A stretch of DNA of 63,470 nt, filler included, from Candidatus Omnitrophota bacterium (GTDB lineage: Bacteria > Omnitrophota > Gorgyraeia > Zapsychrales > JBDRMG01), in NCBI GenBank assembly GCA_043812495.1. It is 7 parts of 5 records of this genome, joined end to end, with 100 filler letters (N's around TTAATTAATTAA, not from the genome) between each part and the next. Parts side by side here need not be neighbours in the genome. Positions count along the whole stretch, not along the records: positions 6,195 to 28,992 come from JBDRMG010000004.1; 6 more parts are not named here. One strand, 5' to 3'. A program made the translations under genes and the position numbers. Numbering within the stretch: position 1 is the first letter of the stretch; each line of letters opens with the position of its first letter. Shown piece after piece: positions 7,351-44,153 of this stretch. The notes under the pieces are model-generated. The model had not been told where the DNA came from and ran no database searches. It saw only the letters and a list, made by a program, of their open reading frames with translations.

Positions 7351-8431
7351 ATAGGGGACGTTGATTAAAGTATTAAAGTTATTGACAACGACAATAAATG
7401 TTGATAAGTTATTCCCATGCCAAGACAAGCTCGCTTAGATTATGCGGGAGCCCTCCATCATGTAATAGGTCGTGGCATTGATGGCCTATACATTTTTAAA
7501 TCTAAACGGTCTAAACAAGAATTCCACCAACGCTTACGATCATTGCTTAAAGAAAGCAGTCTACAGATATATGCCTGGTCGATTATGGGCAATCATTTTC
7601 ATTTGTTGCTGCAAACCGGCAAAACCAGTTTATCGGAATTTATGCGCAAACTTTTAACAGGATATGCCATTTATTACAATAAAACACAGAAAAGAAAAGG
7701 GTATGTGTTCCAAAATAGATATAAGTCAATTTTGTGTGAAAAAGATGAGTATTTATTGCCATTGATCCGCTATATTCATCTCAATCCAGTGAAAGCCAAG
7801 ATTGTCGAAATAGATCAATTAGAAAAATACCCCTGGACGAGCCATGGAGAAATTACGAAAGAAAAACCAGAAGCGTTGATTAATCGGGTGGAAGTCTTGA
7901 GCTATTTTGGCAACACAAAGAACAAGGCCAAAATATGCTATGAGAAATATGTCAAGGAGGGATTGGATCTTAAAGAGGATTATATGGGAGGAGGGTTAAT
8001 CCGCAGCCTAGGTGGCTTAAAAGAATCGTTTCGCATATCCAAAGAAGACAGGCAGACTTATGATGAGCGCATCTTAGGATCAGGGCAATTCGTTGAGCAT
8101 GTTCTCAAAGATGCCGATCAGGAGGAGCAGAGCCAACAGGTTTTTAAAGACATGAATGATCTTCTTAATCGCACGGTACGATATTATAAGGTCAAAAAAG
8201 ATGATATACTTTATTCACGTACAAAACCGGTAAGGGAAGCTCGTTGTGTGGTAATATTTTTGGCCAATCAATATCTAAAATGCAGTGCAACAAAAATCGG
8301 AAGTATTTTGAGAATGAAACAAGCGGCATCTAGTATTGCTAGAACAAAAGGACAGAAAGCAGTAGAGAAAAAAGGATTACTCAAAAGATTAACAAACTAT
8401 AAACATTAATGAATTAATCAACGTCCCCTAT
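7351..8431 (+). mobile_element. Element bounded by perfect 18-bp terminal inverted repeats, carrying a RAYT-like gene
   Basis: ataggggacgttgattaa (7351-7368) is the reverse complement of ttaatcaacgtcccctat (8414-8431). Confidence 0.85.
7417..8409 (+). CDS. RAYT-like Y1 HUH transposase with C-terminal DnaA_C-like helical domain
   Basis: MPRQAR...HHVIGRG, MGNHFHLL (HUH), G.VFQNRY, RYIHLNPVKA, YPWTSH. Confidence 0.88.
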   Translation: MPRQARLDYAGALHHVIGRGIDGLYIFKSKRSKQEFHQRLRSLLKESSLQIYAWSIMGNHFHLLLQTGKTSLSEFMRKLLTGYAIYYNKTQKRKGYVFQNRYKSILCEKDEYLLPLIRYIHLNPVKAKIVEIDQLEKYPWTSHGEITKEKPEALINRVEVLSYFGNTKNKAKICYEKYVKEGLDLKEDYMGGGLIRSLGGLKESFRISKEDRQTYDERILGSGQFVEHVLKDADQEEQSQQVFKDMNDLLNRTVRYYKVKKDDILYSRTKPVREARCVVIFLANQYLKCSATKIGSILRMKQAASSIARTKGQKAVEKKGLLKRLTNYKH

Positions 8432-9567: not shown

Positions 9568-9987
9568 ATGAGAAATTACGAGCTGCTCGACCATACTGCT
9601 GATTTAGGATTGCGCGTGTTTGGTGCGGATCTCAAAGAATTATTTAGAAATGCGGCCGAGGTGCTTTTTGATATCATCGCCAAGAAAACGAACTCCAAAC
9701 ATCCGCTTGTCACAACATCGGTTAAAATCGATTTAACGGCGGAAAATATCGACGAGCTTTTTGTGCGGTGGCTTTCGGAGCTAGTTTCTTTGGCGGACTG
9801 CGCACATGTCATCTTTGTTGAATTTGATATTCATGCTATGGGCGAAACACATCTTGAGGCAACCGTTCAAGGAGCTCCCGCTCGACAGTTTACGGGCAAG
9901 CGCGAAATCAAGGCTGTGACCTATTGCAATCTAAAAATTCAAAAGCAAGAGGGCCGCTACATAGCCGAAGTTATTTTTGATGTCTGA
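9568..9987 (+). CDS. Archease (RtcB cofactor)
   Basis: YELLDHTADLG, EIKAVTY, C-terminal IFDV. Confidence 0.93.
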   Translation: MRNYELLDHTADLGLRVFGADLKELFRNAAEVLFDIIAKKTNSKHPLVTTSVKIDLTAENIDELFVRWLSELVSLADCAHVIFVEFDIHAMGETHLEATVQGAPARQFTGKREIKAVTYCNLKIQKQEGRYIAEVIFDV

Positions 9988-11449
9988 TATGGTAACCGAA
10001 CAAATAAAAATTCCTCTAGAGAAAATCGATGATTGCCGCTACCGCATCCCGAAGTCTTTTAAAAAGGGCATGCGCGTAGACGGAATGGTCTATGCGAACG
10101 AAGAACTTTTGAAGGACATCTTCAAGGACAAGGCCATCGAACAAGTGATCAATGCGGCTTTCCTGCCGGGAATCGTTGGCCACTCCATGGCCATGCCGGA
10201 TGTGCATTGGGGTTATGGTTTTCCCATCGGCGGTGTTGCGGCCACAGATTTAAATAACGAAGGCGTAATTTCACCCGGCGGAGTCGGTTTTGATATTAAT
10301 TGCGGCGTGCGCTGCATGCGTTCTGAATTCGTGCTCGATGATATCAAGGATCATGTCCCGACATTGATGAAAGTATTGTTTCGCAATGTTCCTTCCGGCG
10401 TGGGATCAACAGGCAATCTTCGCCTTAAGAAAGAAGACGAAAAAAGACTTTTGCGCGAGGGATCCAAGTGGATCGTGCAAAAAGGATTCGGCACGCAGGA
10501 CGATTTGGAGGCGACGGAAGACGAGGGCGCGATTGCAGGCGCTAACCCCGAGGCTGTATCCGAGCGGGCCTATGCGCGAGGGAAGGATCAGGTCGGAACT
10601 TTAGGGAGCGGAAATCATTTTTTGGAAATCCAGGTGATCGATGAGATTTATGACGAGGACGTTGCCCGGGCTTTGAATCTTTTCAAGAATCAAATCACTG
10701 TGATGATCCATTGCGGCTCGCGGGGTTTAGGGCATCAGATTTGCGATGATTACTGTCGCATCATGGACCAGGCGATGAGAAAGTATTTGATTTCTATGCC
10801 GGATCGGCAGCTCGCGTGCGCGCCCGTCAAGTCCCGGGAAGGAACGGATTATTTGGGGGCCATGCGCTGTGCGGCCAATTATGCTTGGGCCAACCGTCAG
10901 TTGATTATGCACAAGGTGCGCGAATCTTTCGAAGCAGTTTTTAAGAAAAGCTGGACAAACATGGGATTACAATTGGTCTATGATGTGGCCCACAATATTG
11001 CTAAAATTGAAAAGCACGATGTCGACGGTCAGGGCCTGTCTCTGTGCGTTCATCGCAAAGGCGCGACGCGGGCTTTTCCTCCCGGTCATCCGGCGTTAGC
11101 GAAACGTTATCAGGCAATCGGACAGCCGGTGATTATCCCCGGCGATATGGGACGAAATTCCTATTTGCTTGTTGGGCAAGAAAGCGGGGCCGAAACATTT
11201 TATTCCTGCTGTCACGGGGCCGGACGGGTAATGTCGCGTATGCAGGCCAAAAAAAGATTTCATTACGGAGATATCATCAAAGATCTAAAAGCCAAAGGTA
11301 TTACACTTGAAGCCCAATCGGCCAAGACGGTGACCGAAGAGGCGCCTCTTGTCTACAAGGATGTTACGGAGGTTGTCGGCGTTGTGCAAAAAGCCGGTTT
11401 AGCCAAGAAGGTCTGCCGGATGCGCCCATTGGGTGTTATGAAAGGATAA
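9980..11449 (+). CDS. rtcB: RNA ligase RtcB
   Basis: [44 protein letters not shown]. Confidence 0.96.
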
Positions 11450-13349: not shown

Positions 13350-13562
13350 AATTGACAATCGCTTGGTTTAATGGTAGGATTTGGCGGATTATTGATATTT
13401 AAGCATTAGGATTAAAGATGCTGGGCTCAGCCTCGCCCAAGGCAGGGCTGAGCCTCGACAAATAGGCATATAAAAGAATATAAGGGACCGGCGCCCTGCC
13501 TTACGGCAGGGCGGTGAGTCTCGGCAATTTTTTAGCAGTATTGAAGATTAGGAAAAATTGCC

Positions 13563-13734
13563 GGAGAAGTGGCAGCCCGTCATTCCGTTTTCGCGGAATG
13601 ACGAGGTCTCGGCGAATTTGCATTACAAATTCGCCGGAAGTGGTAGTTCGCCCATTCAAAATTTGTAATTTTAAATGGGCGAGATCTCGCCATTTCGTCT
13701 TTTGACGAAATGGCGGAAATGCGACGGTCTCGAA
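13563..13734 (+). pseudogene. tRNA-Ser 5' half (anticodon CGA) split by two double-hairpin insertions
   Basis: 13563-13575 + 13639-13646 + 13718-13734 join to GGAGAAGTGGCAGAGTGGTAGAATGCGACGGTCTCGAA, 35/38 identical to 13781-13818. Confidence 0.85.
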
Positions 13735-13780
13735 CCCCGCACCAATTCTTGTTATTTGATTTTTATGCAATAAGAAGTTT

Positions 13781-13869
13781 GGAGAAGTGGCAGAGTGGTT
13801 GAATGCGGCGGTCTTGAAAACCGTTAGGGGCCGTGAGGTTCCTCGAGGGTTCGAATCCTTCCTTCTCCG
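13781..13869 (+). tRNA. tRNA-Ser(UGA), no encoded CCA
   Basis: GGAGAAG/CTTCTCC acceptor stem, CT-TGA-AA loop, long variable arm, GTTCGAATC T-loop, G discriminator. Confidence 0.95.
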
Positions 13870-13994
13870 TTCTTCTTCGCTCAAACACTTTCATGTTTGA
13901 GCTTCGAAGCAACGTCATCCTTTTAAAAGAGCGGAGAAGAACGTTTCTGCGAAGCGCATACCATATTTTAGTATTAAAGCGCGAAGCAGAACGC
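13868..13994. mobile_element. Cargo-less tRNA 3'-end CGAAG element
   Basis: IR 13868-13882 / 13929-13943 (14/15), then a hairpin at 13945-13994 nearly identical to 24082-24132. Confidence 0.75.
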
Positions 13995-19889: not shown

Positions 19890-19967
19890 AATAGGGAATA
19901 GGCTAAGATGAATGGAGAATGCTTGGCCGGCCCCGCCTTTGGGCGGGGCCGAGCCTTGGCAAATTTT
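19890..19967 (+). repeat. tRNA-upstream module, near-identical to 23533-23610
   Basis: aatagggaataggct.agatgaatggagaatg.ttggccggccccgcc-loop-ggcggggccgagcct.ggcaa. Confidence 0.85.
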
Positions 19968-19997
19968 CCCTAAATTAAGTAATTGGAAAATTTGACG

Positions 19998-20083
19998 GGA
20001 GAGGTGCGAGAGCGGTTGAATCGGGCGGTCTCGAAAACCGTTGTCCCTTCTGGGGATCCTGGGTTCGAATCCCAGCCTCTCCG
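19998..20083 (+). tRNA. tRNA-Ser(CGA), no encoded CCA
   Basis: GGAGAGG/CCTCTCC acceptor stem, CT-CGA-AA loop, variable arm, GTTCGAATC. Confidence 0.95.
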
Positions 20084-23465: not shown

Positions 23466-23645
23466 AATAACATAAGCGGGAATAACCTTGGATGTCCCTG
23501 CCTTGGGCGGGGCCGAGTCTCGGCAAATTTTTAATAGGGAATAGGCTTAGATGAATGGAGAATGTTTGGCCGGCCCCGCCCAAAGGCGGGGCCGAGCCTC
23601 GGCAATTTTTCAAGAAATATTTTAAGGCATGAGAGAAAAATTGCC

Positions 23646-23734
23646 GGAGAGGTGGCTGAGCGGTTGAAAGCGCACGCTTGGAGAGCGTGTGGCGGCCGAA
23701 AGGTTGCTCGAGAGTTCGAATCTCTCCCTCTCCG
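23646..23734 (+). tRNA. tRNA-Ser(GGA), no encoded CCA
   Basis: GGAGAGG/CCTCTCC acceptor stem, CACGC-TT-GGA-GA-GCGTG arm, variable arm, GTTCGAATC. Confidence 0.95.
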
Positions 23735-24132
23735 TTCTACTTCGCCTTTCAACAATGAAAAATATGGTAAAGGCTTCGTAGAACGAGTTATGAGAATTTA
23801 AAGACAATAGGCGTTTTATATGTATATTGTTTATATTCTCAAAAGCACAAAGTTTCCTGAACGACATTATGTTGGTATAACGCAAGATTTAGCAAGAAGG
23901 CTCAAGGAGCATAATAGCGGCGATATCGAGTATAGCAGTCGATATGCCCCGTGGGACGTTGAAACATTTGTTACCTTTCGCAATAAACGACTTGCTTGCG
24001 ACTTTGAAAAATATCTTAAGGCCGGCTCGGGACATGCTTTCCTGAAGAGGCGATTATTTAGCGAAAAGGCGAAGTAGAACGTTCTGCGAAGCGCGTACCA
24101 TCATTTAAATATTAAAGCGCGAAGCAGAACGC
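23733..24132 (+). mobile_element. tRNA 3'-end CGAAG element carrying a GIY-YIG gene
   Basis: Perfect 17-bp IR 23733-23749 / 24065-24081 brackets the gene; hairpin unit at 24082-24132. Confidence 0.8.
23820..24077 (+). CDS. Small GIY-YIG nuclease (YhbQ/UPF0213-like)
   Basis: VYIL...HYVGIT.DL.RRL.EHN.G, A..FEKYLK.GSG. Confidence 0.9.
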   Translation: MYIVYILKSTKFPERHYVGITQDLARRLKEHNSGDIEYSSRYAPWDVETFVTFRNKRLACDFEKYLKAGSGHAFLKRRLFSEKAK

Positions 24133-30620: not shown

Positions 30621-31592
30621 TTATTCAATCGCCGGCTCAGTTCTTTCGGTCAAAAGCAAGAACAAAACAGCCATACGTACAGCGACGCCGTTAGTGACCT
30701 GCTCTAAGATAACGGAATATTTTCCATCGGCCACATCGGCGGAAATTTCGACACCGCGATTGGTCGGCCCGGGATGCATGATCAAAACGTCTTTTTTGGC
30801 TAGCTTTAATTTCTCTTGGTCCAGACCAAAAACCCTTGCGTACTCTCTGATCGAAGGTAAAAACTTTTCCTGTTGGCGTTCTTTTTGAAGCCGGAGCATC
30901 ATGATCACGTCGGAATCTTTAAGGACATCGTGAATATCATAGGTCACCCTGACCCCCATCTTTTCAATATCCACGGGCATCATCGTCGAAGGACCGCAGA
31001 GCGTCACGTGGGCTCCGAGTTTTGTCAAGCCCCAAATGTTTGAGCGGGCCACACGGGAATGAAGGATATCGCCGACAATGCTGACATTTAATCCTTCCAA
31101 ACGACCGAGTCTTTCTTGAATCGTAAACATGTCCAAAAGGGCCTGGGTGGGATGGGAACGACAACCGTCTCCGCCGTTGACGACCGAAGGTTCAAGAGCC
31201 TTGGCCAATGTGTGGGGAACACCCCCACAGGCATGGCGAACGATAATCAAATCCACATTCATGGCTTCGATATTTTTGGCCATGTCCAGGATAGATTCGC
31301 CCTTGGTCAGTGAACTGCTGCTGGTGGCAATATTGACCGTATCCGCGGACAGGCGTTTGGCCGCAAGCTCAAAAGACATGCGCGTGCGCGTAGACGGCTC
31401 GCAAAAGAGCATGACAACGGTTTTTCCGCGAAGGGCAGGAACTTTCTTGATATCGCGCGTGGAAACTTCTTTAAAGGATTTGGCACGCTCTAAAATCAGC
31501 TCGATCTCTTCTTTGGTAAGATCCTGGAGATCCAGAAGATCGTGATGTCTCCATTTAAGCGTGTTATTCTTTGTTTTCGACAACGACTTCAT
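30621..31592 (-). CDS. pyrB: Aspartate carbamoyltransferase catalytic subunit (start approximate)
   Basis: [33 protein letters not shown]. Confidence 0.96.
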
Positions 31593-32103
31593 CCTCAAGG
31601 TTATCCGTCTCTTTGAGTTTGACCTGTACGTTCTGATCGGCTGAGGTCGGGATATTCTTGCCCACATAATCCGCGCGGATGGGCAATTCTCTGTGACCGC
31701 GGTCAACGAGAACAACGAGTTGGATATTGGCCGGTCGGCCAAAATCAATCAGCTCATCGAGGGCGGCACGAATCGTACGGCCTGTATACAAAACATCATC
31801 CACCAAAATGACTTTTTTATCGTTTATATCAAAATCGATTTGCGTCTCCCGCACGACCGGTTGGCTGTCAATCAGGGTCAGGTCATCACGATAAAGGGTG
31901 ATGTCCAGAATGCCTAAGGGAACAGACTCCCCTTCAATCTCTTGTAGGCATGCATTTAAGCGCTCGGCCAAAATGGCCCCGCGCGTGCGGATACCGATAA
32001 TGCAAAGATCTTTGAGGCCTTTGTTTTTCTCTAAGATTTCATGCGCAAGCCGCTTGAGGGCGCGCTGGATGGTCTCTTGATCCATGATTTTTGTATCACT
32101 CAT
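31564..32103 (-). CDS. pyrR: PyrR attenuation regulator / uracil phosphoribosyltransferase
   Basis: [32 protein letters not shown] at 32103 with GAGG. Confidence 0.96.
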
Positions 32104-32131: not shown

Positions 32132-32271
32132 ACCCTTGACATCTTCGATGTCAAGGGTTAATTCGCCTCGCCACTTATGTTTCCGTCACGCCTATGACGT
32201 GACGAGATCTCGTCATCCTGAATTATTTTCAGGATGACGGACATTAACATTCCATAAGTGGCAGGCTCATT
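32132..32271 (+). repeat. Bipartite double-hairpin element containing a nested GAGATCTC element (32182-32241)
   Basis: acccttgacatc..gatgtcaagggt-taattcg...gccacttatg[tccg..gagatctc..cgga]..cataagtggc..ctcatt. Confidence 0.8.
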
Positions 32272-32372
32272 AAAAAAAATACCCACTCCTTGTGAGAGTG
32301 AGTCTCTTTTCCCAATGCTATATTTACGTTCATATTTACTCCTTGCCAGCCTCTCGGGACCGGCTTAAAGGC
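32272..32372 (-). promoter_or_regulatory. PyrR-binding loop and attenuator terminator
   Basis: Minus strand CCTTTAAGCC-GGTCCCGAGAGGCT-GGCAAGG fits the PyrR binding consensus; actcactc..gagtgggt plus a T-run at 32272-32303. Confidence 0.85.
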
Positions 32373-32489
32373 TTATTGTTGGTCAAAATATAACACTCGA
32401 TCACAAAATTGTCAAGGAATAAAAAGGCGCCCCGCCCGCCAAAGATGCAATGGCGGGCGGGGCGCTGATTATCATTTCCGTTTCTTTTC

Positions 32490-43886: not shown

Positions 43887-44153
43887 TTACTTTTTAGCCT
43901 TGGACTTTTTTGCGGTCGGCCGAACATTAATAAACGTAACGGCTCTTTTGTAGTGGCCTCTTTTATGCGTAAAGTAAACCTCGCCGTCACAGGTCGCCGT
44001 TAAATGCATGCGTCCGGAAACATTGACACCCGACTTCCATTTATTGCCCTGACGCGTCAAGACCGTACCGCAGCTGACTTTTTCACCGCCTGTCACTTTA
44101 ACGCCGCGTGTTTCTTTATAATATCTTTTTGTTAAACCACCGACTCTTGACAT
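43887..44153 (-). CDS. rpmA: Divergent ribosomal protein bL27
   Basis: RGVK..GGE.V..G.VL.RQ.G....G.NV, L.A..DG.V.F; AAGGAGGAG RBS. Confidence 0.75.
   Translation of the reverse strand: MSRVGGLTKRYYKETRGVKVTGGEKVSCGTVLTRQGNKWKSGVNVSGRMHLTATCDGEVYFTHKRGHYKRAVTFINVRPTAKKSKAKK

Follow-up and report, generated by a model that had tools for sequence, protein, structure and literature searches.

A family of gene-less double-hairpin insertion elements in an Omnitrophota genome, with a small GIY-YIG nuclease as candidate mover

Three short double hairpins in the genome of a Candidatus Omnitrophota bacterium are members of a real family of gene-less DNA insertion elements, each about 60 bases long. 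They lie in the window analysed here, a stretch of 63,470 nucleotides made of contigs joined via N spacers, with copies 1 and 2 on contig C4 and copy 3 on C7; the source genome is 1.94 Mb and 90% complete. Family members read YCCG-hairpin-AGRYCT-hairpin-CGGR, and the genome holds about 45 of them. Taken jointly, and with high confidence, the doublets insert exactly and without target duplication, preferring a position between G/T and A/C, they are tolerated at harmless sites, their pairing is conserved through changes on both sides of the stems with no sign of selection as RNA, and they are gained and lost among relatives. What moves them is a more delicate matter. A standalone GIY-YIG nuclease of about 80 amino acids is the candidate, and on the gene neighbourhoods described below we give it roughly an even chance; the explanation as a whole, in which this nuclease is added to the insertion behaviour, we likewise consider evenly balanced between right and wrong.

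The earlier note on this DNA had described three copies, defined by structure rather than sequence and built around a palindromic core. These copies are present and all fold as double hairpins (Table 1). As single-stranded DNA, copies 1, 2 and 3 fold at -25.4, -27.5 and -20.7 kcal/mol, with z-scores of -8.5, -9.35 and -8.32, all below -8, and 0/200 shuffles fold equally well. To the count of three have to be added the variant double hairpins of the window, which the table also lists. Across the whole genome a relaxed two-hairpin scan gives 44 matches against 0–4 in ten dinucleotide shuffles, so that the hit count is well above that of shuffled DNA, and a search for the sequence pattern yields 45 matches, overlapping ones included, against 0 for a reversed control. 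Alternative 6-mer cores give 0–2 double hairpins each, and there are 54 genomic occurrences of the 10-base core. In a curated set of 42 copies the length is 42–98 (median 60.5), and across the family it is 42–103 nt. The left end of the curated copies is TCCG in 28 cases and CCCG in 11, the right end CGGA in 31 and CGGG in 10. Stem length is variable and 67 of the 84 hairpins are distinct, with some recurring. All hairpin feet begin with CG and 134/168 are CGYC (CGTC in 54/168, CGCC in 80/168); they are paired, with no unpaired tag. The definition by structure holds in that shape is conserved more than stem sequence; it fails in so far as the element is not sequence-free, given the CGYC feet and the recurring hairpins. 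A similar qualification applies to the core, where AG-R-Y-CT is present as described, and an 8-bp palindrome is not the sole junction, with 5-nt and GRYC variants as well as a GGATCC type. The GGATCC-type doublet has the same ends and sites as the AGRYCT-type element, and each of the genome's four tRNA-Ser genes has a 5-nt-core variant before it. Many copies share one outer stem repeat as their host. Elements within tracts of heptamer repeats were also seen (C53:22251, C53:23647, L035, L058, L093, L101).

Table 1. Double-hairpin elements of the window and the features around them (positions count along the whole window)
Feature	Position	Strand	Remarks
Variant double hairpin, 5-nt core	13488..13564		Right end overlaps first GG of tRNA fragment
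Duplicated tRNA-Ser 5' fragment, three pieces	13563-13575, 13639-13646, 13718-13734 (span 13563..13734)	+	Anticodon CGA
Double-hairpin element copy 1	13576..13638		Ends CCCG..CGGA, core AGGTCT; site is D-arm of tRNA-Ser 5' fragment
Double-hairpin element copy 2	13647..13717		Ends TTCG..CGGA, core AGATCT; site is D-loop of same tRNA-Ser fragment as copy 1
Hairpin of different repeat family	13735..13781		Left end resembles arm enclosing GIY-YIG gene at C5:24351
Intact tRNA-Ser(TGA)	13780..13870	+	
Variant double hairpin	19927..19999		Immediately 5' of tRNA-Ser(CGA) 19998-20083
Variant double hairpin, core AGCCT	23570..23647		Immediately 5' of tRNA-Ser(GGA) 23645-23735
Standalone 85-aa GIY-YIG gene after tRNA-Ser(GGA)	23820..24077	+	Clade other than element-linked one
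Outer stem repeat hosting copy 3	32160..32271		Between terminator and pyrR start (pyrR 31564-32082, minus strand)
Double-hairpin element copy 3	32182..32241		Ends TCCG..CGGA, core AGATCT; site is loop of larger stem repeat

Once copies 1 and 2 are removed, the tRNA-Ser 5' fragment that they interrupt equals the intact downstream gene at 35/38 bases. The flanks of copy 1, once joined, match intact tRNA-Ser, and at another locus (L133) an element occupies the same tRNA-Ser position as copy 2. The single hairpin that follows the fragment is possibly a gene-less remnant. For the outer stem repeat that houses copy 3, empty copies exist in the same genome and at the orthologous site of relatives. 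This repeat is a many-copy family of its own, and an inverted pair of it flanks a different GIY-YIG gene at C5:24160-24700. Next to it, positions 32270-32380 (minus strand) hold what we take to be a PyrR-binding-loop-like leader with its terminator, conserved across the order and without a match in Rfam at the gathering threshold. Two further genes of the window may be mentioned: an RtcB-family ligase gene (9977-11449) lies two genes upstream of the tRNA-Ser locus, before serS, and a RAYT-like Y1 protein (7417-8409) has a C-terminal DnaA-type helix-turn-helix and no element in its flanks.

The mode of insertion can be read from empty sites. For each copy exactly YCCG..CGGR was excised, the flanks were joined, and a match with at most 2 mismatches in 20 was sought in the genome. 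An empty site is restored in this way for 19/42 copies, against 0–3 for nine off-register models, which agrees with the proposal of a non-autonomous insertion element with 4-bp termini; many of the 19 matches come from a single outer repeat family and are not independent of each other. The other 23/42 copies have no close empty match within the genome. Models with a target duplication of 1–3 nt account for 0–1/42 copies and were rejected. No fixed 4–5-nt target is found across the 42 copies, the flanks of which vary apart from a K|M preference, the preceding base being G/T in 39/42 and the following base A/C in 38/41. In all the DNA fetched, 12/127 doublets excise exactly to tRNA sequence, against 0–1 off register. 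Insertion points seen in tRNAs lie in D-, anticodon- and T-loops. A single asymmetric hairpin (YCCG..CGAGR) was considered as the general mobile unit and rejected, since 0/130 of these excise to tRNA sequence; the comparison of the two counts makes the doublet the mobile unit. Asymmetric single hairpins at L321 and L324 seem to be nested in loops. At the 3' ends of tRNA-Ser genes the element's own TCCGCCA end restores the tRNA end. The tolerated sites shown are spare tRNA fragments, tRNA 3' ends, loops of other repeats and in-frame sites in proteins. At C47:42166-42230 and 43974-44038 there are near-identical elements that each lie between direct repeats (about 20 nt) of a gene's 3' end, a possible case of a rare long duplication.

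Protein genes also provide filled and empty sites at unique positions. In gltX, of which there is a single full-length copy, an exact insert of 81 nt lies in frame and adds 27 residues (C23:4357-4437, L416), and 4/4 orthologs are empty. In leuS an element adds 34 residues in frame (C10:1644-1746, L443). Among 168 genomes of the order the leuS site is filled in 7 and empty in 120, with 41 scored neither way. The filled genomes belong to five families and their hairpins differ, while the insert always lies directly after a Trp-Met codon pair. A single clade of filled genomes is rejected with p-AU 0.02 in a quick tree of 16 rows. One old insertion followed by many losses fits the pattern, and it stays compatible because the inserts share their phase and because the leuS sequences of two genomes (G017, G331) resemble microhomology deletion scars. 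Under the rule of 4-bp ends, 8/8 leuS inserts (the seven genomes and L130) are 1 nt longer than a multiple of the codon, so that exact insertion can be reconciled with this site only by an adjustment of 1 nt. Folding is weak at several empty leuS sites, and targets are therefore not always hairpin loops. The inserts in proteins are 15–34 residues long and share only ends and core. Among loci with an open frame 24/45 have a length that is a multiple of three, compared with 60/166 overall, in a set that contains chance frames and duplicates and is not taken as evidence of an in-frame bias. The gene of a 4Fe-4S dicluster protein, for which orthologs were found, contains an in-frame GGATCC-type doublet of 30 nt (C47:12079-12108, L417).

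Outside proteins, 27 pyrR leaders were compared and the AGRYCT type is present in 1/27, that of this genome only. By eye, the pyrR outer repeat is empty in three relatives and missing in most, and in one genome (G034) the position of copy 3 is taken by a GGATCC-type doublet. At the orthologous tRNA-Ser locus the core is found in 1/29 other loci. Presence/absence polymorphism among relatives, on which the mobile reading had been staked, is thus found at the pyrR leader, gltX and leuS. All these comparisons of filled and empty sites are between genera; four DNA read runs cover the locus in fragments, with no joint across the elements.

Named Omnitrophota records share the hairpins and the insert at the leuS site with this genome, in agreement with its phylum. 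The element occurs in several phyla beyond Omnitrophota. A scan of GTDB with the pattern gives at least 111 loci; among those listed, 91/111 fold as double hairpins in a foot-pairing test, and a stricter, ungapped hairpin test is passed by 63/115 of the matches listed. Among the listed loci 80 have titles, and 27 of these are Omnitrophota; other hosts among the listed loci include Nitrospira, Thermodesulfobacteriota, Ignavibacteria, Bacteroidota, planctomycetes and Firestonebacteria. Within Omnitrophota the distribution is patchy, with the pattern in 14/201 genomes and true hairpins, by eye, in 11 (G071, G086 and G211 were removed from the positive set, because their pattern matches lack hairpins). 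Among closer relatives a looser pattern is present in 17/41. As for carriage by viruses, 0/36 pattern matches in IMG/VR form double hairpins at the threshold used.

The earlier note had suggested looking for copies beside a nuclease or HUH gene, and the neighbourhood that emerges is that of a small GIY-YIG nuclease, HUH/Y1 genes being without the element (0/7 loci). The genome has 16 GIY-YIG and 7 Y1_Tnp matches. Among the pattern loci listed, 17/111 have a GIY-YIG gene within their flanks of 300–400 bp, and most of the GIY-YIG genes next to elements form one clade, A1, with the order tRNA-Ser, element, short spacer, start codon. In A1 loci fetched from metagenomes by protein alone, a doublet lies within 300 bp in 47/66 under a relaxed test (one mismatch) and in 32/71 under a stricter one, with tRNA-Ser nearby in 53/71. 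Other GIY-YIG genes have the element beside them in 4/86. The present genome ranks first of the 201 both in GIY-YIG matches (16) and in number of elements. The median number of GIY-YIG matches is 6.5 in element-positive genomes against 3 (p ~0.002 without this genome, uncorrected for kinship), a difference between related genomes that may reflect a general tolerance of repeats. The A1 protein is a bare GIY-YIG domain, and its structure model (pLDDT 93.5) is predicted to be nearest in fold to UPF0213 proteins, HIGLE and Slx1.

If this reading is right, a standalone, Slx1/UPF0213-like GIY-YIG nuclease of about 80 aa would act in trans. Its gene would ride at tRNA-Ser genes with an element at the gene's end. 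The nuclease would read the foot of a hairpin in single-stranded DNA and would nick both donor and target, leaving the host to finish the junction by ligation or repair. In addition, many of this genome's copies would have spread passively within larger repeats. GIY-YIG domains hydrolyse DNA and are not known to carry out strand transfer. At the level of genomes the co-occurrence of clade A1 and the element is weak: the strict pattern is present in 2/8 genomes with a strong A1 member, and 9/11 element-positive genomes are without a strong member (Fisher p = 0.064). Of the strong A1 genes in whole genomes 3/11 have a doublet beside them, and the A1 member of this genome (C51:2917) is flanked by 5-nt-core variants. 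Furthermore 8/12 rows that define A1 came from element-adjacent genes, and for this reason the adjacency may be the hitch-hiking of one lineage. It is this weak co-occurrence, the 3/11 adjacency, the seeding of A1 and the missing precedent for strand transfer by the fold that keep the nuclease step at even chances. Element parts on both sides of a GIY-YIG gene are found at L105 and five metagenome loci; these could be read as autonomous copies that carry the gene in a hairpin loop, but tandem duplication accounts for them equally well, and the autonomous reading is not adopted. Small GIY-YIG genes also lie beside tRNA genes at C51:8024, C66:14680, C36:601 and C18:44539, and such genes are often placed between a hairpin-rich tRNA 5' fragment and the intact gene, a general design of tRNA-fragment cassettes. 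At C64:52802-53020 there is an Ssn-like GIY-YIG gene with inverted repeat flanks of its own, separate from the double-hairpin family.

Several other explanations have to be weighed against a GIY-YIG mover. An HUH/Y1 enzyme (IS200 TnpA or RAYT-like) might move the doublets by peel-and-paste, as with REPINs or gene-less derivatives of IS200/IS605, and the GIY-YIG genes would then be mere neighbours at tRNA hot spots. Two terminal hairpins without target duplication are the product expected of such an enzyme, and one of the seven Y1_Tnp matches of the genome lies in the window (7417-8409). In addition six copies, mostly at contig ends, adjoin a hairpin inside a composite repeat that we take to resemble that of IS200 (C20:82, C20:47873, C32:4125, C39:10059, C63:44, C5:22881). 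However, an element is found within 1.5 kb of 0/7 Y1 loci, a Y1 match at 1/111 of the pattern loci listed (with the six Y1 proteins of this genome as queries), and the GTAG tag at 2/42 flanks; the target shows K|M only, where a fixed 4–5-nt sequence would be expected. One genome (G011) carries the element without a Y1 match, and Y1 counts show no clear difference (p = 0.10; 0.27 within the class). We regard this explanation as unlikely. A little less likely still is that there is no dedicated enzyme, and that the host produces and spreads the doublets when structured single-stranded DNA undergoes processes such as short-homology recombination or fold-back template switching, with hitch-hiking in tRNA-linked cassettes and larger repeats. 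Such processes would suit stems that are nearly perfect yet diverse (67/84 distinct), the many copies housed in the same outer repeat, the close cassettes L255 and L263 that differ by whole hairpins, and the scar-like leuS sequences of G017 and G331. They sit badly with the constancy of the 4-bp ends and with junctions that are exact at unique sites unrelated to one another (gltX, leuS, and the D-, anticodon- and T-loops of tRNAs) in several phyla, a combination that is hard to obtain unless the ends are recognised.

A function as RNA is improbable as the main role of the element, be it as a processing signal of tRNA leaders, a terminator or a stabiliser, and so is movement through an RNA intermediate. 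The position of the copies would suit it, with the core within 260 bp of 14/41 tRNA genes, all four tRNA-Ser genes included, and with 26/28 intergenic copies between co-oriented genes; the locus also folds strongly as RNA. An RNA route was once suggested for double-hairpin elements of Allomyces, because these are without flanking duplications (PMC2800124, in the part of that paper available). Against this stand the base pairs themselves. In 17 distinct aligned left hairpins, hand-chosen and mostly from tRNA-Ser cassettes, 97.7% of cells are paired, against 32–56% in slid controls, and 7/13 pairs show changes in both partners. For the strand inferred to be transcribed, 462/482 stem pairs are Watson-Crick and G-T is not in excess over A-C (4 vs 5), and the core is not biased in orientation relative to inferred transcription (9 vs 7). 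As the stems covary without a G-U bias, the element would appear to act as DNA, and these small numbers favour maintenance at the DNA level. In Rfam only three tRNAs of the window match at the gathering threshold, with no family for the element, and orthologous pyrR and tRNA-Ser sites are without the element in nearly all relatives. An artefact of assembly or library preparation from fold-back sequences might be suspected from the fact that several contigs end at element repeats, but the same architecture is found across many independent assemblies, frame-preserving inserts are found at one leuS junction in 8 records, and the stems change on both sides, which together leave it a negligible probability.

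The GIY-YIG reading can also be put in a bolder form. A nuclease of about 80 residues would, together with host ligation, be the transposase of a shape-defined element; it would read a foot that mimics the 3' end of tRNA-Ser and would accept any hairpin pair for exact, duplication-free insertion, with essential proteins repeatedly gaining new peptides. In this full form the claim is speculative, and we think it rather doubtful. If true, a GIY-YIG transposase would represent a mobility chemistry unlike that of the DDE, HUH, serine or tyrosine recombinases, and would offer a minimal tool with which to insert DNA exactly. Whatever its mover, a shape-defined element is seen here to lengthen essential aminoacyl-tRNA synthetases by 15–34 residues, in an uncultured phylum that is widespread. 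The element also accounts for broken tRNA-like sequences, a source of confusion in annotation.

No description of the family was found in the literature searched; subscription journals and supplements (e.g. tables of REP and SRM repeats), which lay outside that search, may list it. Several known systems come close. Rickettsia palindromic elements (RPEs) are palindromic DNA in frame in conserved proteins, to which they add peptides, and they form sequence families. The gltX and leuS inserts have this RPE-like property of lying in frame in a conserved gene with empty orthologs. The inserts described here, 15–34 residues long, have nothing but their ends and core in common. RPEs are touched on in PMC3733652. 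That paper, by Di Nocera et al. (2013), deals with CGTC-tagged REPs, which according to its available text are palindromic repeats of small size that have CGTC-like feet and frequently occur as dimers; some lie in frame in genes, tRNA synthetases included, and no dedicated transposase is known. They have an unpaired CGTC tag beside a conserved stem of 8–9 bp with a 4–5-nt loop, whereas here CGYC is a paired foot, stem sequence and length are free, and AGRYCT joins two stems (PMC3733652). A conserved stem and loop with an unpaired tail is not what the elements show, with variable stems and 67/84 distinct hairpins. The running text of the CGTC-REP paper (PMC3733652) does not mention GIY.

A small GIY-YIG enzyme tied to a dispersed hairpin repeat is known from SRM/NTS repeats and Ssn nucleases. 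SsnA, a related small GIY-YIG protein, cuts single-stranded DNA beside its own hairpin repeat, and for these single-domain genes and their repeats the authors hypothesise an IS-like mobility (Chenal et al. 2025, PMC11893778, in the text available). The published degenerate SRM motif has 7 matches in the present genome, and these overlap 0/42 elements. Clade A1 differs in that its repeat is mostly one-sided and its targets are tRNA-Ser, and the genome's Ssn-like gene (C64:52802) is on a different branch from A1 in a quick tree of 85 columns without SsnA itself. REPINs, in the passages of Bertels and Rainey (2011, PMC3116915) that deal with them, are likewise mobile, non-autonomous doublets with compensatory changes; in REPINs, conserved REP sequences form a single long hairpin, and the repeat flanks the Y1 gene. 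The elements here share with them the doublet as replicative unit, and differ in having two separate hairpins, no GTAG tag (2/42 flanks) and no flanked Y1 (RAYT) gene (0/7 Y1 loci; 1/111 among the pattern loci listed). As in IS200/IS605 derivatives there are two terminal hairpins and no target duplication, and the fixed 4–5-nt target of those derivatives is missing. Classical MITEs have terminal inverted repeats of 15–30 bp and a target duplication; the ends here are 4 bp and target duplication is absent. Double-hairpin elements (DHEs), for which Paquin 2000 is reportedly the original paper, are similar in form. In fungal mitochondria these too are two adjacent short hairpins with no flanking duplication, a patchy distribution and a mover described as unknown, and, being mitochondrial and GC-rich, they are likened to the present elements by architecture alone (PMC2800124, PMC10085805, in the parts available).

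How small palindromic repeats without a dedicated transposase, such as CGTC REPs, RPEs and DHEs, are able to spread is an open question. Here the ends are defined, empty and filled sites are known exactly and there is a specific candidate enzyme, about 80 residues long, and the question therefore becomes testable in vitro with oligonucleotides. Next to these systems the present family is an apparently undescribed one, made up of shape-defined, duplication-free insertion elements of the REP/REPIN/SRM kind.
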